Shown piece by piece: positions 19,337 to 51,293 of a stretch of 64,000 nucleotides of DNA (the first letter of the stretch is position 1; every line of letters begins with the position of its first letter). This DNA is from a virus (lineage: Duplodnaviria > Caudoviricetes). The position numbers were made by a program, and so were the translations under genes. The DNA lies in IMG/VR virus record IMGVR_UViG_3300005686_000008; one strand, 5' to 3'. Below the pieces are notes generated by a model. The model made no database searches. It worked only from the letters and a program-made list of their open reading frames with translations, and was not told where the DNA came from.

Positions 19337-19410
19337 GCCCCCGTAAGCTCAATGGTAGAGTTAGGAGTCTCTAAAACTCTTTGTTGCAGGTTCGAGTCCT
19401 GCCGGGGGCG
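19337..19410 (+). tRNA. amber suppressor tRNA, anticodon CUA
   Basis: Acceptor GCCCCCG/CGGGGGC; D arm GCTC/GAGT; anticodon arm GGAGT-CTCTAAA-ACTCT; T arm GCAGG-TTCGAGT-CCTGC. Confidence 0.85.
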
Positions 19411-20947: not shown

Positions 20948-21895
20948 ATGACAAAATATGATCTTTACAAAAGAAATGAAAAAATGATAAGGGAAGAATG
21001 GTTCAAAAACCATATTCCTGAGCTTGTCATTTTTCAAGATGATTTTATCAAAATCAAATGGAAAGAACCCGGTACATGGAATATGGCCGTTGTTTACTAC
21101 ATTGACTGTAAGATGGCTTATCTTATGGTTGCTGGTGATCTTGGAGAAGCAACTTATCAATGGTCAGCCCCGATTAGTCTTGATTTCGTCGGCGGATGCA
21201 ACTTAGATTACTTCAATGGCAAATGCAGAGCGAGTTCATGCGGAGAACGAGGCCAAGAGTGGAGTCAGGAAGTTGCAGAAGATTGGGTTCGTTCCTATAT
21301 TGAAGATCATACTCTTGGAGAAGATCAAGGCGATTCTATTTTCGAGTCTTTGTTTTCAGATGGATATGTTGAAGGTCTTCTCAAAGAAAAAGACCCAGAG
21401 ATTGCTCGCTTCTATACAGAAGAAGACTACAAGAGTTGGCGAGAGATTTCTAGAGAAGAAAAAAACAGGTTTATTGCGATTGCCAAAGAATATCTAAGCA
21501 ATCTTGCTAAGACTTCTGAGTGGAAGAAGTTTAGTAAGGTTGATTATCGCAGAGAACTCATTGAAAAGCAAGAAAAGTTTGAGGATTTAGGCCCTGACGC
21601 TATTGGCGCTTGCGAATCTGAGTTTTCTTGGCTTAGGTGGATAGGTGATAATGGATACGAGTTCTTTGGTGATGACTACTACGAGTTTGGAGATATTGGA
21701 CGCACCATATCTCTTCGGGTTCAATCTCACCTAATTGGACTAAAAATGATTCGCGAAGGTATACTTGCCGGCAAGTATATGAATCCTAGTACCAGATGTC
21801 CCTGGCTAAAGTTTTCGAATTGGTTCAGGGGGAAGTTCAAAAAAATCACAAAAATCCGTGGTCCCAGGCTAAACTTTCTGCGGAAAAGCCGATAG
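20948..21895 (+). CDS. hypothetical phage protein
   Basis: 315-aa ORF; L.VAGDLGEA.Y..YF.GK motif. Confidence 0.7.
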   Translation: MTKYDLYKRNEKMIREEWFKNHIPELVIFQDDFIKIKWKEPGTWNMAVVYYIDCKMAYLMVAGDLGEATYQWSAPISLDFVGGCNLDYFNGKCRASSCGERGQEWSQEVAEDWVRSYIEDHTLGEDQGDSIFESLFSDGYVEGLLKEKDPEIARFYTEEDYKSWREISREEKNRFIAIAKEYLSNLAKTSEWKKFSKVDYRRELIEKQEKFEDLGPDAIGACESEFSWLRWIGDNGYEFFGDDYYEFGDIGRTISLRVQSHLIGLKMIREGILAGKYMNPSTRCPWLKFSNWFRGKFKKITKIRGPRLNFLRKSR

Positions 21896-21902
21896 AGTAA
21901 GA

Positions 21903-22065
21903 GTAGAGTTGTTCGGAAAGTCTGGTATATGTCTCGTATAAACCCTTTTGAAGGCGGGGCAAGCCGCCGCCCGTAAGAGGGGTAGGGTGTAAAAGTACAC
22001 CACCTATGATCAGGGTGGAAGTTGGCTCCCAACCAGCGTTTACCAGATTTTTCGAACAACTCTGC
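21903..22065 (+). ncRNA. structured RNA of unknown family (leader of Pth2-like gene)
   Basis: ~25-bp closing stem GTAGAGTTGTTCGGAAAGTCTGGTA/TACCAGATTTTTCGAACAACTCTGC enclosing GC-rich hairpins (GGCGG/CCGCC, GGTGTA/TACACC, ACCCT/AGGGT). Confidence 0.6.
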
Positions 22066-22081
22066 ATAAAAGGAGTTCAAA

Positions 22082-23281
22082 ATGACGTAGGTACAAACAC
22101 AACCCGTATACTTGTATGTTCTCGTAAGGGAAGACCTTACACCCGTTTCTCAAGTCGCCGTTCAATCGGCGCATGCGGTTATTGAGGCCATTCGAACCTT
22201 TGCTCCCGGCTAGAACCAGGAACATCCGCATCTTGTTCTTCTTTCCGTGAAAAACGAAGAAGAGCTACTGAAGGCCCATGATCGCCTTCAGTATTTTGGC
22301 ATTCAGGTCGCCAAGTTCCAAGAACCTGATTTACTTCGCAAAATTGATACAAAACTTCTTGTAGACCGAAGTAATCCAGTTTCTAAACTGATCAATGGTC
22401 ATCGAGAGTTTAGCAATGTTGCAAGTTTTGCAACATGGAACACAATTTTCTTTGGTATACCCCAAAGAATTGTCAGTTCTATCAATTCCATTATAAACAA
22501 ACCCTCTTTTGCTAAATGGCTTAAGTATTGTTGCTGGTTTTTGACCACAGTATATGCAATCGCTTTGTGTAAGCCTCTTAATATCTTCAAAAGACAAATT
22601 AAAAGATTTGTTTCGTTCTTTTGCACTCTTCTTGTAACTAGCAAACAAAATATTGAAAGGTCCATCAGGATTCCTGATCGAAGTTTTCCAACTACATCCG
22701 CAATTATCGGAAATTCCGCTTCTGAGATTGTGTCCAGAAACAATTTTTTGAGTTCCGCAGGAACATTTACAAAGAAAATACCTACCTCTTCCAGTTATAT
22801 GAGAGGGGCGAGGAACTACAGAAATGACCTTCCATTTCCCGTAAACTTTGCCTGTTTCATCTTTTCCAGTGTTTTGAGTTTGACCAAGGCAGCCACAACT
22901 TTTACTTGTTCCATTGCGAAGACTCTTGCCCATTACCATACGTTGTGTTTTATTAGGACATTGGCATTCGCAAAAGAAAAACTTTGCACTAGAAACAATC
23001 CCTTCAGGTTTTTTGCCTTCAGAAATAACCTTCCATCTACCAAAGATACTACCAATAGGAATTTCAATTTTCATATCCCCTCCAATAAAGTAGTATCGAC
23101 TGTTTCTTCAATAAACAATAATTGCGATAGTTACGAAATAACAGCTATCGCTACGGAACCGCTTCCTGCGGACTCCAAGCTGCGCCGCAAGTTTAGTTGC
23201 TACAACCTTCTCAATTTAGATCCTGGCGAAACCTCTCAAAAAGAGACTGAGCTATCCCCTGCGCGAAAGGAAACTATATGA
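22082..23281 (+). CDS. Pth2-like peptidyl-tRNA hydrolase with two in-frame TAG codons and a large in-frame insertion
   Basis: SD AAGGAG; MT*VQTQPVYLYVLVREDL..QVAVQSAHA..PG*NQEHPHLVLLSVKNEEELL..FQEPD[insert]EITAIATEP..RKFS..LL; TAG at 22088 and 22211. Confidence 0.7.
22331..23074 (-). CDS. HNH-type homing endonuclease (antisense, inside Pth2-like gene)
   Basis: Two G..GxWKVIS..CxCxC..LR.G.S..CGC repeats; CIYCG..NGIDRTDNSLGYTKENCVPCCKTCN; SD GGAGGG; only convincing minus-strand gene. Confidence 0.85.
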   Translation of the reverse strand: MKIEIPIGSIFGRWKVISEGKKPEGIVSSAKFFFCECQCPNKTQRMVMGKSLRNGTSKSCGCLGQTQNTGKDETGKVYGKWKVISVVPRPSHITGRGRYFLCKCSCGTQKIVSGHNLRSGISDNCGCSWKTSIRNPDGPFNILFASYKKSAKERNKSFNLSFEDIKRLTQSDCIYCGQKPATILKPFSKRGFVYNGIDRTDNSLGYTKENCVPCCKTCNIAKLSMTIDQFRNWITSVYKKFCINFAK

Positions 23282-23841
23282 ACAGTTTTCCCGTCATTGT
23301 TATCAGCCATATTCAAGATTGCGAACTTGGAAGTTATTTCAGAGGCGAATGCGATTGGAGGCACTGCAAAAGCGCCAACATGGAAACGGGCATTTTCAAC
23401 TCTCTTGAAGATATTGCCAATCATATCGTAAAGCTTGACAGACAATTCTTTGATGAAGTTCAAAGAACTAACTTCTATAGCGAGTTTGAAGAAAAGATCG
23501 CCAGGAACATTACCAAAGAACACGACCCAAAGTTTGAATATTCTCACTTGATTATTTCCAAGAACAGTTTTTCTGATGATAACTTCGGTATCAGCGGAGA
23601 AAACGGGACCATTAATACTCCGACAGACTGGGAATACACGGATGAACTTCTGAAACTCGTTGTTCAGAAAAAGAAAACCGCAACAGCAAATAGGCTTGCA
23701 AATGAGGAGAAACAAAAGATAGAAAAGGAGCAAAAGCAAAAACAACAAGAACAGCAAGAGCAAGAAAGAATGCGTTTGTTAAATGAGGAGCATGATAAAC
23801 AAGAATATGCTCGTCTCAAGGAAAAGTACGAAAACAAGTAA
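23278..23841 (+). CDS. hypothetical protein with coiled-coil tail
   Basis: ATGA overlap; Q/E/K-rich C-terminus. Confidence 0.6.
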   Translation: MNSFPVIVISHIQDCELGSYFRGECDWRHCKSANMETGIFNSLEDIANHIVKLDRQFFDEVQRTNFYSEFEEKIARNITKEHDPKFEYSHLIISKNSFSDDNFGISGENGTINTPTDWEYTDELLKLVVQKKKTATANRLANEEKQKIEKEQKQKQQEQQEQERMRLLNEEHDKQEYARLKEKYENK

Positions 23842-38614: not shown

Positions 38615-38687
38615 GGCCCTGTCGTCTAGAGGTTTAGGACGTAAGACTTTCAATCTTTCAACCGGAGTTCGATTCTCCGCAGGGTCA
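38615..38687 (+). tRNA. tRNA-Glu(TTC)
   Basis: GGCCCTG/CAGGGTC; loop CTTTCAA; T loop TTCGATT. Confidence 0.9.
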
Positions 38688-38716
38688 TTTTAGTCAGGTT
38701 TTTTATCAGGAAAAAG

Positions 38717-39214
38717 ATGAGTAAGATTTGTACGAAATGCAAACAACCAGGAACCTTTTGCAAAGATAGCAAAAGCAAAGACGGGTTACAATCTCAATGT
38801 AAGATTTGCAAATCTAAACAGATTGTTTCTTACCTTCAAAAAAATAAGGACAAAAGATCAAAATCTGGTCCAGAAAAAAGATTACGTTACTACTATAAGC
38901 ATAAAATTTCTATGAATATGTCTCGCATAATTCGTAGATCATTGCAAGGCTTGAAGAAAGGAAATCATTGGGAACAGCTTGTAGGGTATTCGGTTGAAGA
39001 GTTAAAGCAACACCTAGAAAAACTCTTCAAAGAAGGAATGAATTGGGAAAATTATGGGAAATGGCATATTGATCATGTTATTCCAGTTTCTTCCTTCAAT
39101 ATTGTTTCTGTAAATTGTGAGGATTTTAAAAAATGTTGGGACATTAAGAATCTACAGCCTTTATGGGCTAAAGATAACTTGAGCAAATCAAATAAAATCG
39201 GCCCTATCTGCTAA
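38717..39214 (+). CDS. HNH homing endonuclease
   Basis: CTKC..CKIC; GMNWENYGKWHIDHVIP..NLQPLWAKDNLSK. Confidence 0.9.
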   Translation: MSKICTKCKQPGTFCKDSKSKDGLQSQCKICKSKQIVSYLQKNKDKRSKSGPEKRLRYYYKHKISMNMSRIIRRSLQGLKKGNHWEQLVGYSVEELKQHLEKLFKEGMNWENYGKWHIDHVIPVSSFNIVSVNCEDFKKCWDIKNLQPLWAKDNLSKSNKIGPIC

Positions 39215-39271
39215 CGGCTAGGCTCCCTGATTCTCAGTCAGGTAATACGAGTTCGAATCTCGTTAGGGTCA
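39200..39271 (+). tRNA. tRNA-Glu(CTC)
   Basis: GGCCCTA/TAGGGTC; CCTGA-TTCTCAG-TCAGG; overlaps HNH stop. Confidence 0.85.
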
Positions 39272-39285
39272 TTGAAAAGTTAAGA

Positions 39286-39357
39286 GGCTCCATCGTCTAA
39301 TTGGCAGGACACCACCCTCTCAAGGTGAAAATATGGGTTCAAATCCCATTGGAGTCA
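39286..39357 (+). tRNA. tRNA-Glu(CTC)
   Basis: GGCTCCA/TGGAGTC; CACC-CTCTCAA-GGTG. Confidence 0.85.
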
Positions 39358-39367
39358 TTATAAATGA

Positions 39368-39439
39368 GGCCCTGTAGCATTATGGGTAGATCGGAAGACT
39401 TTCAATCTTCAGGACCGGGTTCAAGCCCCGGCAGGGTCA
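39368..39439 (+). tRNA. tRNA-Glu(TTC)
   Basis: GGCCCTG/CAGGGTC; GAAGA-CTTTCAA-TCTTC; weak D arm. Confidence 0.8.
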
Positions 39440-39606
39440 TTTATGAAAAAGAACACCACTAAGAAGTATTGGTACTTTACTGAAAGAACCGAATGCGTAC
39501 TTTGCGGATATTGCGATACTGTCAAGTTTAGAAAGACTGGCAAAAAACCAAAAGATCCTAAGAAACGTAGCTCTTATAAGCAAATGGCATGTAGCGAGCA
39601 TTTCTT

Positions 39607-39852
39607 ATGAAAAAAGAACTCCTTAAGTTACTTGGGCAACTAGCAGACGAAGCAAAAAGCTTTGGAGTTTATGAACAATATAGCGAAGCAGGAGAAACCC
39701 TATCCGCCGCTTCTGACCGAGTTTATGAACTAACAGCAGAAATTGTTCAACTTGCTACAGGCAAGAAGCCAACAAAGAAAGAACTTGAAGAGGTTCTTTC
39801 TGTTAGCGTTGGCGAAAAAGGGATGTATGATTGTGAAGATGAAGAAGAGTAA
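39607..39852 (+). CDS. hypothetical protein
   Basis: ORF between tRNAs. Confidence 0.55.
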   Translation: MKKELLKLLGQLADEAKSFGVYEQYSEAGETLSAASDRVYELTAEIVQLATGKKPTKKELEEVLSVSVGEKGMYDCEDEEE

Positions 39853-39879
39853 GTAGTTTTGCCGATATAGCTAGATATT

Positions 39880-39953
39880 ACTCCCGTGGCTCGACTGGAT
39901 TAGGCGGAGGTTTTCTAAACCTCTCAAAGCGGGTTCGAATCCTGCCGGGAGTG
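39880..39953 (+). tRNA. tRNA-Arg(TCT)
   Basis: ACTCCCG/CGGGAGT; GAGGT-TTTCTAA-ACCTC; TTCGAAT. Confidence 0.85.
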
Positions 39954-39957
39954 CTTT

Positions 39958-40170
39958 ATGGGCTTTGAACTAATTCTCTTTCTGAAATTAGCAGCCATAT
40001 TATCATTGTTATTTCTTTTACGACGCGACCGTTACGCCGGTAAATGCAAACTACATCTTTGTGACCTGAAAGCATTTATAGGTCCAGACTGTGGCGGCTA
40101 TACCTATTGCCCTATATGTCACGGTGAAGAAAAGGAGATAACAAATGCCAGAACTAAAGAGAAGACCTGA
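39958..40170 (+). CDS. small membrane-anchored Cys-rich protein
   Basis: Hydrophobic N-terminus, CPIC. Confidence 0.45.
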   Translation: MGFELILFLKLAAILSLLFLLRRDRYAGKCKLHLCDLKAFIGPDCGGYTYCPICHGEEKEITNARTKEKT

Positions 40171-40369
40171 TTTGACAAGCATGGAATTGCAGAAATTCGT
40201 TGGAGAAGACTACCTGCGAATAAAGGCCGAACTTGAAAAGGCAGGCTTGAAAGTATTCTGCGGAGAACACCATGAGAAAAGAGAAATCACTTCTTCGCTT
40301 GACCGTCATGTAGATATCAGATACGATAAGGGTAATCGAGAGATCATACGCATTTGGCGAACAGGCTAG
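40145..40369 (+). CDS. hypothetical protein
   Basis: SD AAGGAG. Confidence 0.55.
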   Translation: MPELKRRPDLTSMELQKFVGEDYLRIKAELEKAGLKVFCGEHHEKREITSSLDRHVDIRYDKGNREIIRIWRTG

Positions 40370-40375
40370 GTCAAA

Positions 40376-40582
40376 ATGGCAAAAAAGAAACCCAAAACCT
40401 CTTGTTGCGAAGCCATGAAAGGGCAGATAGAACGGGAATGCCCGGTTCATCCGAATAAAATTGAATGTCCAGACTTTGTTGTAATCAAAACAAAGTCTGG
40501 TTTTGGTATTCCAATCCGAGATGGTGGTAGAAGCTTTCTTGCAATAAACTTTTGCCCTTGGTGCGGAACTCGTATTACTTAA
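40376..40582 (+). CDS. small zinc-binding protein
   Basis: CC..M..C..H..ECPD..IPIRDGG..INFCPWCG. Confidence 0.65.
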   Translation: MAKKKPKTSCCEAMKGQIERECPVHPNKIECPDFVVIKTKSGFGIPIRDGGRSFLAINFCPWCGTRIT

Positions 40583-40595
40583 TTCGGGTAGATAA

Positions 40596-41942
40596 ATGGA
40601 TACTAAAAGGGTTTACAAAAATCCTAACATGGAAAAAAGGAGGCAAGAATTGCTCAAGAAGGAGCAGGCTTCTTTTTTGTTAATTTCTAACAAGAACAGA
40701 TATGTCCATAAGCCCGAAAGAATCGATCTTGCCTTTGAAAAATCCAAAGAATACATTGCCAATGGCAAAATCCCCCACAGAGAAGATAAACTCGTAAATT
40801 TGTTTATTCCTCTTGGAAAAAGCAATTCTGCTTATCTTCTTCGTCTTCTCAAAACTGTTGAAAAAGAAACAGATTTCTTTGAAGATGAAAAGTATTGCTG
40901 GAAGTTTCTAAATGGATGCATGATAATGGCGTATTGGGGAGACTTCTGGGTAAGAGAGCCGGAAGTTTGGAAAAACAAAACCCATAATGTTGAAAAGCAG
41001 TTTACCAGCTTATTGCATTACCTTTTTGCCAAGTACCCCGTTCCTTCCTTCATGAACGAGGCTTTCTTGTCCAATGATGGAATGGGTTCGAAAAAGCAAG
41101 AATGGTTCTTGCATATGGGTAGCGGTCAAAACATAAGAACAGCGCATGGGTTGCCATACCCGATGACAAGAATGATGGCTCACCTGTTTTCTGAGGCTCC
41201 TTCAGATTTCAAAATCATGGAAGCCTTCAGGTTTGCTCATATCCGCTCTCTTGACGGCTCTATGCCCATAATCAAAGGGTGGCTTGAGTCCCCATTGGCT
41301 ATTGATTTTAGCAACATGGATTTCTGGGATTCCGTTGTTCGCTTTTTTATTGATAACCCGATGCTTGACCCCAGCAAGATTTCTTCCATTATTGATTACA
41401 TTTATAACCAAAAATACGTTGATACTCTTCTCGTAACTCCTGATGGCACAAGAATTAATCGGGGACCAGCGCAGCCTAACTTCACAATGAAGGGAAGGAA
41501 TCCCGAAGCGTTATTGACTCAAGTTGAGAAATGGCATACCCATACAGCTATCAGCAAAAAGAATTCTTTCTTGCAATGGAAGTCTTGCGGCATTCCTGGC
41601 GGTCGCATTGAAGAAGGTTCAGAAAAAGGCAGGAAAGTATACAGCATTGTTGAACTTCTTAACTCTACCGAGTTGAAAGAAGAAGGCAAAACAATGCACC
41701 ACTGCGTTGCAACATACGCATCTTCTTGTTCTTCTGGCAGAAATGCTGTTTACTCCGTTGCTCAGGTTGAAGGAAACGAATGCGGAAGAAAAGCCACAAT
41801 ATCGCTTAACCTTTCTGGCAAGCCAACCTTACAGGAAGCTCGCGGTAAATACAACGAAACACTAAGCGTCCCTGTTGCGAGGATAATTCGAACTTGGGCA
41901 AATTTGAGAAACGTTGCTATTTCAAATTGGGCAAAGTTGTGA
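40596..41942 (+). CDS. PcfJ-like domain protein
   Basis: LFAKYPVP.F; L.EEGKTMHHCVATY; QEARGKYN. Confidence 0.8.
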   Translation: MDTKRVYKNPNMEKRRQELLKKEQASFLLISNKNRYVHKPERIDLAFEKSKEYIANGKIPHREDKLVNLFIPLGKSNSAYLLRLLKTVEKETDFFEDEKYCWKFLNGCMIMAYWGDFWVREPEVWKNKTHNVEKQFTSLLHYLFAKYPVPSFMNEAFLSNDGMGSKKQEWFLHMGSGQNIRTAHGLPYPMTRMMAHLFSEAPSDFKIMEAFRFAHIRSLDGSMPIIKGWLESPLAIDFSNMDFWDSVVRFFIDNPMLDPSKISSIIDYIYNQKYVDTLLVTPDGTRINRGPAQPNFTMKGRNPEALLTQVEKWHTHTAISKKNSFLQWKSCGIPGGRIEEGSEKGRKVYSIVELLNSTELKEEGKTMHHCVATYASSCSSGRNAVYSVAQVEGNECGRKATISLNLSGKPTLQEARGKYNETLSVPVARIIRTWANLRNVAISNWAKL

Positions 41943-42007
41943 TTTGATAGGGTTGCGGCCTCAGACTAAACTTCTTTCGATTTCCGTATAGGTACAGGAC
42001 CGAGCGA

Positions 42008-42652
42008 ATGGGAACAGGCATAGGACAACAGTTTCAAAAGATGCTTAGCCACTTGGTGGCTTTTCATCGAATGGAAAAAGTCCTAGAAACAGGTACGTTT
42101 ACTGGTAATGGTTCTACAAAGTGCTTGTCCGATGCTTTGGAAATGGTAGGCCCTTCTTCTTTGTTATGGACTATTGAAATCAATCATAGATACCTGAAAA
42201 TTGCGCAAGACTTCTGTAAGGGAAAAGCGAACATCGTATACTGTTTAGGTTCTAGCGTTCCCAAGAACCTGGTTCCTACGGTAGAAGATACAAAACTTTG
42301 GATTGAAAGTAACCTTGCAGAGAATCCAAAGATAAGAGTTGACTATAAGGGGTCTCCAGAAAAGTATGTTGAGGAATCTTCTGGTCAGTATGTTATTTAT
42401 GATCTTCTTGGCCTACTAATTCCTAAAATCAAGTATGACCTTATACTCCTTGATTCAGCAGGTCATATAGGTTTTGTTGAGTTTTCCTACCTAATGACCA
42501 TTCTTAACTATCCTACATTTATCGCCTTGGACGATATCAATCATATCAAACACTGGAAAACGTCTCAACAGATTTTTTCAGACAAGAGATTTGAGGTTAT
42601 CTTCAAGACAGATGAAAGATACGGCTCGATGGTTGCCAAGTTTACCCCATGA
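42008..42652 (+). CDS. class I SAM-dependent methyltransferase-like protein
   Basis: VLETGTFTGNGST, TIEIN, LLDSAGH, LDD. Confidence 0.7.
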   Translation: MGTGIGQQFQKMLSHLVAFHRMEKVLETGTFTGNGSTKCLSDALEMVGPSSLLWTIEINHRYLKIAQDFCKGKANIVYCLGSSVPKNLVPTVEDTKLWIESNLAENPKIRVDYKGSPEKYVEESSGQYVIYDLLGLLIPKIKYDLILLDSAGHIGFVEFSYLMTILNYPTFIALDDINHIKHWKTSQQIFSDKRFEVIFKTDERYGSMVAKFTP

Positions 42653-42655
42653 TTT

Positions 42656-42859
42656 ATGCAAATAACTTCGCAAAAACTACTTGTACTTTTGAAAGCTAGC
42701 AAAGAAATGGCTAGACTGTATGAAATAACAGATTCCGATGCCATGCAAAAGGGATTGGAAATCATGGGCGATATAGCCTCTGAATTCTCATCAGATGAAT
42801 TGCAAAAGATGATTGAAGAGGTTGAGAAAGAAATTTGTCCCAGTAGCTCAGTTGAATAG
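42656..42859 (+). CDS. hypothetical protein
   Basis: ORF whose end runs into a tRNA 5' remnant. Confidence 0.45.
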   Translation: MQITSQKLLVLLKASKEMARLYEITDSDAMQKGLEIMGDIASEFSSDELQKMIEEVEKEICPSSSVE

Positions 42860-42861
42860 AG
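42837..42861 (+). pseudogene. 5' remnant of split tRNA-Arg
   Basis: GTCCCAG-TA-GCTC-AGTTGAATA-GAG; acceptor strand pairs with CTGGGAC at 43382-43388. Confidence 0.75.
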
Positions 42862-42874
42862 AGTGTATAAAAAT

Positions 42875-42947
42875 GTCCTCGTAGCTCAATTGGAAGAGCA
42901 ACAGCCTTCTAAGCTGTAGGTTACTGGTTCGAGTCCAGTCGGGGATG
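42875..42947 (+). tRNA. tRNA-Arg(TCT)
   Basis: GTCCTCG/CGGGGAT; ACAGC-CTTCTAA-GCTGT; TTCGAGT. Confidence 0.9.
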
Positions 42948-43006
42948 CTTGATTAGAAGAAGGATTTCTAAACAGTTCTTTGTATTTCACCTATAGGAGG
43001 TGAAAT

Positions 43007-43354
43007 ATGAGGAAATGTCAAAAATGTCAGGTAGAAAAAAATGAAGAAGAGTTTTATGCGACAACTCGCAAAAACAGCTATTGTAAAGTCTGTTTTAATG
43101 AGTATTGCATAAACAGATGGAAGCAAAGAAAAATTGATGCAGTTAACTACAAAGGTGGCAAATGCGTAATATGTGGATATAAAAAGAATCATTCCGCATT
43201 AGATTTCCACCACAGAAATCCTAAAGAAAAAGATGTTGATTGGAGTCAATTAAGACTTAGAAGTTGGAAAAAGATTATTGAGGAACTCAATAAATGCGAT
43301 CTAGTTTGTAGAAACTGTCATGCGGAAATCCATAATCCGCAGTCAAGCTTCTAA
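43007..43354 (+). CDS. HNH homing endonuclease
   Basis: YKGGKCVICGY..ALDFHH..KCDLVCRNCHAEIH; RBS in hairpin. Confidence 0.9.
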   Translation: MRKCQKCQVEKNEEEFYATTRKNSYCKVCFNEYCINRWKQRKIDAVNYKGGKCVICGYKKNHSALDFHHRNPKEKDVDWSQLRLRSWKKIIEELNKCDLVCRNCHAEIHNPQSSF

Positions 43355-43389
43355 GCGGCAGGTCACAGGTTTGAGTCCTGTCTGGGACG
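43347..43389 (+). pseudogene. 3' remnant of split tRNA-Arg(TCT)
   Basis: CTTCTAA loop, GCGGC, AGGTC, ACAGG-TTTGAGT-CCTGT, CTGGGAC-G. Confidence 0.75.
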
Positions 43390-43565
43390 TTTATGAAAGT
43401 TATTAGAAGCGAACATGGAATTGAATTAATTCCAGAAACGGAGTTCGAAAAAGAGTGCTTGAGGCTAATTGCCAATAGAGCAGTAACTCCTGTTTGGACA
43501 GACTCTTGGAACCGAAGCGGCAATCTCAAGATTGAAGCTAAAGAACCAGATTGGGGAACGTAGTC

Positions 43566-44039
43566 ATGTCAGAGATGCACGACTGTCCTCAATGTAATAA
43601 AAGGCATGTTTCATGGGACGCTCGATGCGGCTCATGGTTATGCCTAACAATTGGATGCGGATATTCTACGAAAGTTTATCCACGATTGAAGAAAGAGAAC
43701 GGAACAATGAACGGTCCCGAATCCCTTTATTCTCTCCGGTTTCCTAACGGATTCAAGATTGATGACGAATCAGCCCTGTCTGAAATGTATGTTAAGGACA
43801 GGATTGACTGCGAAGCGACTGGAAACATCAAGTTTCTCATTTCAAAATGGCAGTTTTTATGTCCTTCGATTCAAGGTAAAACCAATATCAACAACGATGA
43901 CGTTCTTGTTCCTCGCGAACTTTTGCATCTTGCTATATTCGCTCGTAAGTTTGGGGTTAGCGAAGGATTGATTTTCTTCCAACTCATTAATAGCGGTAAA
44001 TTAACTGTTGATCAAGATGGATTTGTAAGAAGCAAGTAA
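43566..44039 (+). CDS. hypothetical protein with N-terminal zinc ribbon
   Basis: CPQC..CLTIGC. Confidence 0.55.
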   Translation: MSEMHDCPQCNKRHVSWDARCGSWLCLTIGCGYSTKVYPRLKKENGTMNGPESLYSLRFPNGFKIDDESALSEMYVKDRIDCEATGNIKFLISKWQFLCPSIQGKTNINNDDVLVPRELLHLAIFARKFGVSEGLIFFQLINSGKLTVDQDGFVRSK

Positions 44040-44231
44040 GGATTTAGACATGAAATACCTTTGTTTTATCTTTGGAGTTCTTTTGATTGCCGGCGCTTTG
44101 GCCGCTTGGGTTTTCTATGGCAAGCCCGGTGAGGATGGGGGAGGCCATGCCTTTGTTGGCATTGCTGGCGCTGTTATTGCAGGTTGGGGCGTAAGTATTC
44201 ATGAACGGGAACTGGAAAAGAAATAAATCAA

Positions 44232-44305
44232 GCTCTCGTAGCTCAGTTGGATAGAGCAGCGGTTTCCTAAACCGCAGGTCGTGCGTTCGAGTCGCGCCGG
44301 GAGCG
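44232..44305 (+). tRNA. tRNA-Arg(CCT)
   Basis: GCTCTCG/CGGGAGC; GCGGT-TTCCTAA-ACCGC. Confidence 0.9.
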
Positions 44306-49308: not shown

Positions 49309-49386
49309 GAGAAGATAGAAGTCGAAGGTAGAAGGTTAACATATTGCAAAAAAGACCTTTTGCCACCAACTTACTTCTAGCTTTTC
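49309..49386 (+). ncRNA. Y RNA-like element 3
   Basis: TAGAAGT-CG-AAG / CTT-ACTTCTA; second stem GGTAGAAGGTT/GACCTTTTGCC; GGTTAAC. Confidence 0.75.
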
Positions 49387-49402
49387 TTGACAATTGAATA
49401 AT

Positions 49403-49525
49403 GCGCCTGTAGTGTAATGGCTAGCACGCTAAAACATCCTGACCAATTACTTACCGAACAGGTCGAACGGAAAGGGTTATCTCTATATCCCAGAGGTAGT
49501 TTGGGTTCGAATCCCAACGGGCGCT
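49403..49525 (+). ncRNA. tRNA-like Y RNA (YrlA-like, circularly permuted)
   Basis: Acceptor GCGCCTG/CGGGCGC, D arm GTG..TAATGGCTAG..CAC, T arm TTGGG-TTCGAAT-CCCAA; anticodon arm replaced by CTTACC-GAACA-GGTCGAACGG module. Confidence 0.75.
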
Positions 49526-49550
49526 TTGTAAACGAATGTTGGAAGTTACA

Positions 49551-49585
49551 TACTTCAGTAATAGTTACTGAAGTCGAATAAGGAG
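49551..49585 (+). promoter_or_regulatory. Ro-site-like hairpin abutting the ro60 Shine-Dalgarno
   Basis: ACTTCAGTAA-TAG-TTACTGAAGT-CGAA-T-AAGGAG. Confidence 0.5.
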
Positions 49586-49592
49586 ATTGCAA

Positions 49593-51293
49593 ATGGCAAA
49601 CTATGGAAAGTTGACTGGTTCTCTTAGCTCCAAGACCCCAAAGGCTACCCCTCAGACGGTACAGACTCCTGGAACCGTTCAGAATAACGCCGGTGGTTTC
49701 GTTTTTGAGATTAATAAGTGGGACCGCCTGGACCGCTTCCTGATCCTCGGTACGGATGGGGCAACCTATTACTGTACTGAGCGCAAGATGACTCTTGATA
49801 ATGCTAAGAACGTTATTGAGTGCATTAAGGAGGATGGTCTGCGCACCGTTCAGCGCATCGTTGAAATCAGCGATGCTGGTCGCGCTCCAAAGAACGACCC
49901 TGCCTTGTTTGCTCTTGCGCTTTGCGCAGGTCATGATTCGGCTACGCCCGAGACTCGTCGCGCTGCTCTTGCTGCGCTTCCGAAGGTTGCTCGTATTGGA
50001 ACTCACTTGTTCCAGTTCGCGCACTTCGTTGACGGTTTCCGTGGTTGGGGTTCTGGTCTTCGTAACGCTATCGCCAACTGGTATAACGGTATGAAGCCTG
50101 ACCGCTTGGCTCTTCAGGTTGTCAAGTATCCTCAGCGCACCGCAGAAGAGGGTAACTCCAAGTCTTCCTGGTCGCATGATGACTTGCTTCGCAAGTGTCA
50201 CGCAAGGGGCGACGAGCTTCACAATATGATCTATGCTTATGTAACTCGCGAAGGCAAGTTGCCTGACCCTGTACCTGAGCAGCTTGTTATCCTTGAGGGT
50301 GCAAGCAAGATCAAGGGTCAGACTAACCCGAGCATCGTTGCTTCTCTTGTCGAGGAGTACCAGCTTCCTCACGAGCTGATCCCGAAGGAAGTCGCTAACG
50401 ATCCGAAGGTATGGCAGGCTCTCTTGCCTCACATGCCTATCACCGCTACTATGCGCGTTCTCAACCGCCTTACTTCGTATGGAGTTCTTAAGCCGTTCTC
50501 CAGCGAACTCAAGATGGTTACTGAGCGCTTGACCAACGTTGAGCAGATCAAGAAGGGTCGCGTTCACCCGTTGGCCGTTCTTGGCGCTCTCAAGACTTAC
50601 TCCGCAGGTCGCGGAGTTCGCGGAAGCCTTACCTGGTCGCCAATCGCCCAGGTATCTGACGCTCTCAACGAGATGCTTTACCTTGCGTTCGACGCAATCG
50701 AGCCAACTGGTAAGAACATCCTTTTGGGTCTTGACGTTTCTGGTTCTATGACCGGCGGTAGCGTTGGTGGACTTGACTTCGTTACGCCTCGCGAGGCATC
50801 TGCTGTTATGGCGATGGTTACGGCGCGCAGCGAAAAGAACTGGCACGTTATCGGCTTCACTTCTGGCGGATATTCCTACGAGAAGGGAACTTCTGGTAGG
50901 TATGGTTTCGGCGGGAACTACGGAGTTACCGAAATCAATATCAGCCCGAAGGACAAGCTTGATACGGTTTGCAACAAGATTGAGAAGCTTCCAATGGGAG
51001 GTACTGATTGTGCCCTGCCGATCATGTATGCTCTTGAGAAGGGTCTTAATGTTGACGCCTTCGTTACCTACACGGATAACGAGACTTGGGCTGGTTCTAT
51101 CAAGCCTCACGAGGCTTTGAAGATGTATCGCAATCAGCGTAACCCGCAGGCGAAGGTGATTGCGGTTGGTATGACGGCTACGGAGTACAGCATCGTTGAC
51201 GAGAACGACGCAGGTTCTATGAACTTCGTTGGATTCGACACGAGCGCCCCGGCTCTCATGGCGGACTTCATCCGTAAGGATTTGCGCCGCTAA
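49593..51293 (+). CDS. rsr: Ro60/TROVE-domain RNA-binding protein (Rsr)
   Basis: NNAGGFVF..RFLILGT.G.TYY, RIGTHLF.F..RGWG, LLRKCH, MPITATMRVL, vWA LDVSGSM, GGTDCALP, TDNETW, GFD; SD AAGGAG. Confidence 0.95.
   Translation: MANYGKLTGSLSSKTPKATPQTVQTPGTVQNNAGGFVFEINKWDRLDRFLILGTDGATYYCTERKMTLDNAKNVIECIKEDGLRTVQRIVEISDAGRAPKNDPALFALALCAGHDSATPETRRAALAALPKVARIGTHLFQFAHFVDGFRGWGSGLRNAIANWYNGMKPDRLALQVVKYPQRTAEEGNSKSSWSHDDLLRKCHARGDELHNMIYAYVTREGKLPDPVPEQLVILEGASKIKGQTNPSIVASLVEEYQLPHELIPKEVANDPKVWQALLPHMPITATMRVLNRLTSYGVLKPFSSELKMVTERLTNVEQIKKGRVHPLAVLGALKTYSAGRGVRGSLTWSPIAQVSDALNEMLYLAFDAIEPTGKNILLGLDVSGSMTGGSVGGLDFVTPREASAVMAMVTARSEKNWHVIGFTSGGYSYEKGTSGRYGFGGNYGVTEINISPKDKLDTVCNKIEKLPMGGTDCALPIMYALEKGLNVDAFVTYTDNETWAGSIKPHEALKMYRNQRNPQAKVIAVGMTATEYSIVDENDAGSMNFVGFDTSAPALMADFIRKDLRR

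Follow-up and report, generated by a model that had tools for sequence, protein, structure and literature searches.

A 64,000-nucleotide stretch of DNA from a virus of the Caudoviricetes (Duplodnaviria; IMG/VR virus record IMGVR_UViG_3300005686_000008), hereafter the window, carries a gene for an HNH-type nuclease that lies antisense, and in exact codon register, inside a gene resembling those of the PTH2 family of peptidyl-tRNA hydrolases. The anatomy of this insert, its specific avoidance of certain codons, its frame-preserving insertions and deletions (indels), its presence/absence polymorphism and the discordant divergence of the element and its flanks are established by the data below. 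The explanation that accounts for them best, and which we consider probable on these signatures, is that the insert is not removed at all: ribosomes translating the PTH2-like message would read through it, and selection would keep its antisense frame open.

The interrupted PTH2-like gene spans positions 22082-23281 of the window, on the + strand. Its N-terminal part (22082-22330, 83 codons) is preceded by an AAGGAG motif and ends in ...FQEPD; its C-terminal part (23135-23281, +) starts with EITAIATEPLPADSK..., is in frame with the insert and ends at a TGA stop codon (23279-23281). Read straight through, the gene would yield a product of 399 residues, in which TAG codons are translated as Gln by assumption, as in all host translations reported here. 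Between the two parts lies the inserted element (22331-23134). Its limits follow from alignment with L003 and L004, two loci that lack it; it comprises 804 nucleotides, that is, 268 host-frame codons without a stop. A preliminary description of this DNA, made from the sequence alone, had placed a 247-residue minus-strand HNH gene with its own Shine-Dalgarno sequence between the motifs FQEPD and EITAIATEP. This gene is indeed present as an open reading frame (ORF) at 22331-23074 on the - strand, with an ATG start, a TAA stop (22331-22333) and a GGAGG sequence on the complement of 23079-23083.

Insert-free homologues of 119-137 residues are present in other metagenomes. The closest, P0001 (125 residues, sequence ...FQEPDRNNEITAIASEP...), is 99% identical to the window gene in the N-terminal part, and its residues 87-115 align with the C-terminal part. 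Alignment to such homologues, which the preliminary description had proposed as the way to define the junctions, puts them exactly at 22330|22331 on the left and 23134|23135 on the right. Contigs from two sequencing runs agree with P0001 on this point: the contig from run X6 joins 22330 to 23133 with seven other letters between them, and the one from run X5 goes on after 22330 with a coding sequence for RNNEITAI. The insert replaces nine nucleotides (RNN) of the insert-free allele, for a net gain of 265 codons. In one insert-bearing locus, L009, the original RNN codons survive 3' of the element, which puts the site of entry between the codons for Asp and Arg. The host and HNH frames are codon-aligned (22331-22247 = 84 = 28x3), and the + frame runs without TAA, TAG or TGA from 22247 to 23281, where the gene's own stop lies, or from 22082 if TAG is read as sense. 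Frame arithmetic and a stop scan of 22247-23281 thus bear out the codon alignment and the stop-free frame of about 800 nucleotides noted previously.

The part of the insert that does not belong to the HNH gene amounts to only 60 of the 804 nucleotides. It forms a spacer (23075-23134) that separates the HNH start from the C-terminal PTH2 part and reads IPSNKVVSTVSSINNNCDSY on the + strand. Its minus strand carries the ribosome-binding site of the HNH gene (complement of 23079-23083) and, at 23090-23111, a conserved block that occurs once in the window; a promoter scan of the spacer found no sigma-70-like promoter for the HNH gene.

How should the two genes be named? The Pfam family PTH2 (PF01981) matches the N-terminal part alone with 27.4 bits (cut-off 23), over profile positions 3-81 of 115. 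The equivalog-level profiles for archaeal Pth2 are not reached (NF003314, 18.8 bits for a cut-off of 126; TIGR00283, 17.3 bits for a cut-off of 82), so that 'PTH2-like' is the safe name. The product of the minus-strand gene matches phrog_374 ('HNH endonuclease', 1.5e-21) and phrog_1035 (7e-16), and a profile of its family matches the restriction enzyme PacI (3ldy, 7.6e-9) and Gme HNH (4.6e-3); a Pfam search of the ORF gave no match at E<=0.1. Its AlphaFold2 model has a mean predicted local distance difference test score (pLDDT) of 90.1, and the best Foldseek matches of this model are PacI (probability 1.00) and the Gme HNH nicking endonuclease (4h9d, probability 0.95-0.97). In a 29-sequence alignment (A2), residues C173, C176, C215, C218, N210 and N219 are near-invariant; they form two CxxC zinc pairs on either side of the core and a metal-binding Asn. 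The canonical catalytic His is missing: the sequence has D198-R199 instead of D-H, with an invariant G205-Y206 downstream, as in PacI, which was reported to use a tyrosine instead of the usual histidine base (PMC3384342). On its sequence, we class the protein as a PacI-like variant of the homing-type, beta-beta-alpha-metal nucleases, not as a canonical HNH. The ratio of nonsynonymous to synonymous substitution rates (dN/dS) among the copies described below is 0.12-0.20, which indicates that the nuclease is under purifying selection. A search of the 'phages' collection returned a single match, 87 nucleotides inside the HNH gene, in a 595-kb uncultured phage.

Codon choice, frame continuity and apparent mobility in six copies

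On the minus strand, the codons TTA, CTA and TCA are the complements of the three stops in the host frame. Leu is encoded exactly 10 times and Ser 24 times in the window HNH gene (36.6% GC), never by one of these three triplets, as the preliminary description had noted from an approximate count. What is the chance of such an open antisense frame? Computed for the window copy alone, it is 6.9e-4 under the codon usage of the window (2.4e-3 when TAG is not counted as a stop) and 1.5e-6 under that of related HNH genes, a calculation that had been suggested at the outset. Among stretches of 247 codons taken from the window's genes, 48 of 4138 are open in the in-register antisense frame. The evidence that a single copy provides against chance is moderate only.

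The closest homologues of the HNH protein (P0011, 87% identical; P0012, 66%; P0013, 58%; P0014, 61%; P0015, 51%) come from five loci on independent metagenomic contigs, L005, L006/L007, L008, L009 and L215, and all lie antisense at the same PTH2-like site. We therefore have six copies to compare, those of the window, L005, L006, L008, L009 and L215, with amino acid identities of 49-87%. Synonymous divergence (dS) in the HNH gene is 0.43 between the window and L005 and 1.3 (1.29) between the window and L006, and other pairs are saturated. The HNH gene of L009 is intact, the gene caller having taken an internal Met. The in-register host frame is stop-free in six of six copies. Across the copies, 80 codons specify Leu and 112 specify Ser; TTA, CTA and TCA are entirely absent, and in 28 of the 41 Leu/Ser columns that they share the synonymous codon has changed, never into a forbidden one.

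As controls we used 81 further family members from viral contigs, with identities of 28-44%. Every one of them contains TTA, CTA or TCA (81/81), with a median of 11 per gene in the 67 whose GC content is below 45%. Open antisense frames in related HNH genes located elsewhere would have suggested chance or codon bias, as the preliminary description pointed out; none was found (0/81), and the contrast with six of six PTH2-resident copies is significant (Fisher test, 2e-9). The probability of zero forbidden codons is 3e-8 to 3e-6 per copy under the codon usage of the control family, and 4e-4 to 7e-2 under local usage (five copies, all but L215). An internal control is available in the six copies themselves. 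Codons ending in A make up 122 of 388 in the other four-fold boxes versus 0 of 125 in TCN and CTN (p = 7e-18); in two-fold A/G pairs, the A-ending member is used in 227 of 306 cases elsewhere versus 0 of 23 for TTA (p = 3e-13). What is avoided is thus precisely the set of codons that become stops on the complementary strand, and a general dislike of A-ending codons does not account for it.

Lengths have changed in those parts of the element that do not encode the HNH protein. Insert lengths at four loci (804, 816, 804 and 837 nucleotides), the gaps between the Asp codon and the HNH stop (0, 18, 6 and 18 nucleotides) and the right-hand spacers between the HNH start and the C-terminal part at five loci (60, 60, 63, 60 and 81 nucleotides) are all multiples of three. 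The TA(I/L)ATEP motif of the C-terminal part is kept, and in frame, in all insert-bearing loci. In the N-terminal part, dN/dS is 0.07 at a dS of 1.27 between the insert-bearing window and L006.

Insert-free alleles that are identical to the window up to 22330 occur in two unrelated studies (the contigs of runs X5 and X6). Compared with the insert-free locus L003, the window is 97.7% identical to the left of the insert and 79.5% to its right. Scans of metagenome and viral collections with the N-terminal part retrieved 125 PTH2 loci, of which one, the L006 contig, bears the HNH gene. Directly 3' of the PTH2-like gene, a 187-residue gene (23278-23841, +) begins with an ATG that overlaps the PTH2 stop (ATGA) and has a weak Mom-family match (E 0.017). 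It is found at this position in the window, L005 and L006, that is, in three of three insert-bearing close relatives, and in none of the nine insert-free loci L003, L004, L090, L091 and L166-L170. Between the window and L005, dS is 0.43 in the HNH gene, 1.1 in the 187-residue gene and saturated in the C-terminal PTH2 part. The trees are discordant as well, since the C-terminal part pairs L005 with L006, whereas the HNH gene pairs the window with L005. With identical alleles that lack the insert, and with divergence that differs between the HNH gene and its flank, the element looks mobile. The distribution of the 187-residue gene fits a co-conversion tract that includes the right-hand flank; this gene may be a passenger of co-conversion or a part of the mobile unit.

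Proposed passage of ribosomes through the insert

We propose that a mobile HNH gene settled antisense in the PTH2-like gene of a phage, between the codons for Asp83 and Arg84 and in exact codon register. The insert would stay in both RNA and protein, and ribosomes on the PTH2 message would traverse the reverse complement of the nuclease gene. Their product would have 399 residues, with a probably unstructured loop of about 265 residues between two strands of a complete PTH2 fold. Such a traversal would be possible only if TTA, CTA and TCA were absent and length changed in threes, and both properties would be kept by selection. The nuclease itself would be translated from its own minus-strand ribosome-binding site and would presumably cut insert-free alleles at the ...GAT|CGCAACAACGAA... 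site, after which repair from an insert-bearing phage would copy the element along with its right flank (the C-terminal PTH2 part and the 187-residue gene).

That the message is translated through the insert we infer solely from the signatures of selection: splicing, bypass or protein excision would not select against antisense stops or for threefold indels, which argues that ribosomes do traverse it. The suggestion in the preliminary description that selection may keep the host frame open around an unspliced insertion of about 265 residues is thus strengthened by the six stop-free copies, by the lack of any such copy among 81 relatives and by the control on A-ending codons, while the splicing or bypass route that it offered as an alternative is disfavoured. 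A structure prediction for the fusion, also suggested there, agrees with a loop in a complete fold. In the AlphaFold2 model of the read-through protein, residues 1-88 and 348-381 pack together, mostly with pLDDT of about 85-90, and over residues 8-380 the PTH2 halves match 3erj (Z 14.8; root-mean-square deviation 2.5 A, 110 of 116 residues), 1wn2 (13.4) and 1q7s (13.3). Residues 89-347 have a pLDDT of 25-42, whereas the same DNA read as HNH gives 90. The in-frame C-terminal part and the low dN/dS of the N-terminal part favour a PTH2 protein that is still useful, and we suppose that the fusion would keep PTH2 activity.

Several observations weigh against this interpretation. Repeated re-invasion of intact alleles may mimic conservation of the PTH2-like gene. 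The insert directly follows the conserved Asp of the EPD motif, a residue that may be catalytic in Pth2, and a hydrophobic insert of 265 residues at this Asp could well abolish activity. The copies are related by descent, so that joint probabilities overstate their independence. Elsewhere in the window, a Ro60-like gene (see below) has an in-register antisense frame that is fully open over 577 codons (ORF 49377-51110, -), which its general poverty in A-ending codons explains only partly. In L008, the N-terminal part has a one-nucleotide frameshift (...QQA / VQSGH..., at about 2700-2810 of the reverse complement) while the frame spanning the HNH gene is open; either the gene has decayed into a pseudogene or the 6.8x assembly of this GC-richer phage contains an error. 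The locus L215 (reverse complement, 826-1365 and flanks) has a variant architecture. There, the PTH2-like gene is uninterrupted and its stop overlaps the 3' end of the HNH gene by 22 nucleotides; the antisense HNH gene (179 residues) follows, and 3' of it the C-terminal PTH2 part occurs again, as a divergent second copy that continues the frame antisense to the HNH gene. With an intact PTH2-like gene there is no read-through from PTH2, yet the HNH gene contains zero forbidden codons, a purity that could be a relic or reflect a different benefit. The HNH gene and the C-terminal part seem to travel together in this locus.

Could the open frame serve ribosome coverage alone? In this main rival to translation of a useful fusion, which we hold to be rather unlikely, the PTH2-like gene is inactivated and the open frame keeps ribosomes on the message across 800 nucleotides, avoiding Rho-type termination or decay and supplying the next gene, whose start overlaps the PTH2 stop, with ribosomes. 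The ATGA stop/start overlap with the next gene is indeed found in the window, L006 and L008, where insert-free relatives have a spacer of 72-85 nucleotides, and nearly all genes of the window lie on the + strand, in long co-directional runs. L215 also speaks for such a role, as its frame is open despite the intact upstream PTH2-like gene and an ATG in the HNH-antisense frame, 2 nucleotides past the PTH2 stop, opens it. However, the gap to the next gene is about 83 nucleotides in L009 and about 20 in L005, so that coupling is not universal. Polarity alone would require neither the threefold indels of the right-hand spacer nor a C-terminal motif strictly kept in frame, and the dN/dS of 0.07 in the N-terminal part between two insert-bearing phages also speaks against this rival.

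Removal of the insert by an unrecognised intron, an intein-like reaction or a long-range bypass, with an open frame that is merely incidental, appears very improbable to us. The PTH2 parts are conserved, as they would be around a spliced element, and in phage T4 gene 60 a homing-endonuclease cassette can pair with bypassing. However, Rfam families, including group I introns, have no match in 21300-23500 even at E<=10, and the 60 nucleotides outside the HNH gene are too few for a ribozyme core. In Pfam, no domain is found on the host-frame insert and PTH2 is the sole family that matches the 399-residue product. The first residue of the host-frame insert is L or R, the last is Y or N, and E or Q comes next (L...Y, then E, in the window); the insert thus has neither the Cys/Ser/Thr nor the His-Asn of inteins. 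These searches agree with the earlier remark that neither a group I intron core nor intein termini can be seen. A signal for bypass was not found either: the codon after GAT, the would-be take-off codon, is TTA, AGA or TTG, never a stop, and there are no matched take-off and landing codons common to all loci. We considered matched GAT codons, but the second GAT, present in the window, L005 and L006, is missing from L008 and L009; likewise, a four-nucleotide TTAC repeat at both ends of the window insert is not common to the other loci. Nor would anything select against antisense stops, or for threefold indels, if the insert were removed.

Two further explanations receive next to no credence from us. 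One is chance or generic codon bias, by which the antisense frame would be open by accident and the PTH2-like gene simply destroyed when the element recently entered it. Of all antisense frames, the in-register one is most apt to be open; it is so in 48 of the 4138 stretches above and over 577 codons of the Ro60-like gene. Against this stand six of six diverged copies with an open frame versus none of 81 relatives, a specific avoidance (p about 1e-17) and indels that all preserve the frame; nor are the six copies near-identical recent descendants, with dS values up to saturation. The other is that the DNA is doubly coding, the polypeptide opposite the HNH gene being a useful domain. The VSTVSSI block of the spacer may be cited in its favour, as changes between loci fall mostly at host-frame third codon positions (in a small sample). 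However, the insert is modelled with a pLDDT of 25-42 and matches no family, a protein search with the 344-residue host-frame ORF returned no scored relative in the databases, and the dS of the HNH gene (1.29) is close to that of the flanking PTH2 part (1.27), with no sign of extra constraint.

Amber codons and genomic setting

The preliminary description, borne out here in all that it observed, overlooked the true start of the PTH2-like gene and two amber codons read as sense. The real start is the ATG at 22082, and in-frame TAG codons follow at 22088-22090 and 22211-22213 (codons 3 and 44). Close relatives all keep amber at these positions, whether they carry the insert or not, and the conservation extends even to the more distant loci L008, L009 and L215 (the codon preceding G-Q-x-HP). 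The presence of TAG at the same two codons in the DNA of relatives implies that these phages read amber as sense. A tRNA gene with a CUA anticodon, an amber suppressor, lies 2.7 kb upstream of the PTH2-like gene (19337-19410, +; ARAGORN; Rfam tRNA, 54.8 bits); it has G1-C72 and G73, which do not settle the amino acid inserted. Synthesis of the PTH2-like hydrolase thus looks dependent on amber suppression. CTA, which reads as TAG in the host frame, is absent from the 80 Leu codons of the six HNH copies, versus about 10-12% expected, although TAG is apparently decoded. This purging of TAG from the insert hints at a cost, or a timing, of amber decoding. With two conserved ambers in its peptidyl-tRNA hydrolase gene and a suppressor tRNA elsewhere in the same phage, the case touches on the way recoded phages time translation.

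Directly 5' of the PTH2 start, the 186-nucleotide spacer 21896-22081 (+) has a folding energy of -80.6 kcal/mol, compared with -48.6 +/- 4.6 for shuffled sequences (z = -7.0). Its predicted structure consists of a closing stem of about 25 bp around several hairpins and has no Rfam match. Counterparts occur in the same place in L170 (93.5% identical) and L168 (86%), and none in L004; the spacer is a variable structured element.

The window as a whole (40.8% GC, with 8 tRNA genes and the strand organisation mentioned above) looks like a piece of a very large phage, and comes from a metagenome of bioreactor sludge. A tRNA cluster at 38615-44305 serves two amino acids only, with four tRNA-Glu (UUC twice, CUC twice) and three tRNA-Arg (UCU twice, CCU). 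The Ro60/TROVE-like gene (49587-51293, +; phrog_850, 1.4e-79; 53% GC) has zero TTA, CTA or TCA in 568 codons. Just 5' of it lies a tRNA-like RNA of 123 nucleotides (49403-49525, +; Rfam tRNA, 39.6 bits), possibly a Y-RNA-like partner of the Ro60-like protein.

Comparison with known systems

To our knowledge, homing endonuclease genes have been thought to persist inside genes only by means of self-splicing introns or inteins, and otherwise to lie between genes. The evidence gathered here points to a different solution, in which the element occupies the complementary strand and selection edits its synonymous codons for the passage of host ribosomes. We lean, if only slightly, towards the broader view that antisense, codon-registered residence with purged antisense stops is a general third strategy beside introns and inteins, and that the host protein works with a 265-residue loop near its active site. 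If this is true, unannotated nuclease genes may lie concealed in many 'hypothetical' insertions and unusually long ORFs of phage genes: gene callers report one strand only, and here the HNH gene was called and the PTH2-like gene dropped. It would also be a clear-cut natural case in which one strand is under selection on behalf of the other, and would give a measure of the size of insertion that a small enzyme fold can accommodate.

The nearest published case, which the preliminary description overlooked, is the ShiLan domain or 'hidden HNH' of mycobacteriophage DNA methylases, an in-frame, stop-free, non-splicing insert with an HNH gene in the third frame of the same strand (PMC11855218). Such hidden HNH insertions in actinophage DNA methylases were described by Gosselin et al. 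2023 (PMC9957025) and by Arsenault, Gosselin & Gogarten 2025 (PMC11855218). Both ShiLan and the PTH2 insert are actively spreading elements located between codons of a conserved phage gene, with no host-frame stop and no motif of an intron or intein; in both, structure prediction of the host-frame translation is poor, the HNH is found in another reading, and a retained protein loop is proposed. They differ in that the ShiLan HNH is on the same strand, out of frame and devoid of a detectable ribosome-binding site, whereas the HNH gene of the PTH2 insert is antisense, exactly in codon register and equipped with a GGAGG of its own. The ShiLan paper (PMC11855218) uses none of the words 'antisense', 'reverse' and 'opposite', and our literature searches found no antisense arrangement of this kind in phages. 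What is added here is a new host gene (PTH2-like and amber-gated, where ShiLan resides in a methylase), a clade of PacI-like nucleases dedicated to one site, and selection at the codon level with both family and internal controls.

More distant parallels can be drawn with the free-standing homing endonuclease genes of T4-like phages (seg, mob), which practise intronless homing, and with the mobA/gene 60 bypass cassette. Like the seg and mob genes, the PTH2 insert has no intron or intein, is present or absent among close relatives, and is bordered by a sharp change in flank identity that fits co-conversion. However, the T4-like genes are intergenic, split a gene or are accommodated by a 50-nucleotide ribosomal hop, whereas the present element lies inside a coding sequence and, it appears, is traversed by translating ribosomes. 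Group I introns and inteins that carry homing endonucleases have in common with it an endonuclease inside a host gene, at a conserved site and with little damage to the host, and antisense endonuclease genes reportedly exist within group I introns of nuclear rDNA. These elements splice; the PTH2 insert has neither ribozyme nor Hint domain, and its harm would be limited by codon choice. As for the nuclease itself, PacI shares with its HNH domain the pattern CxxC ... D-R ... G-Y ... N ... CxxC-N. PacI is a restriction enzyme of 142 residues, whereas the protein found here adds two N-terminal, repeated Cys-rich modules and behaves as a homing element.

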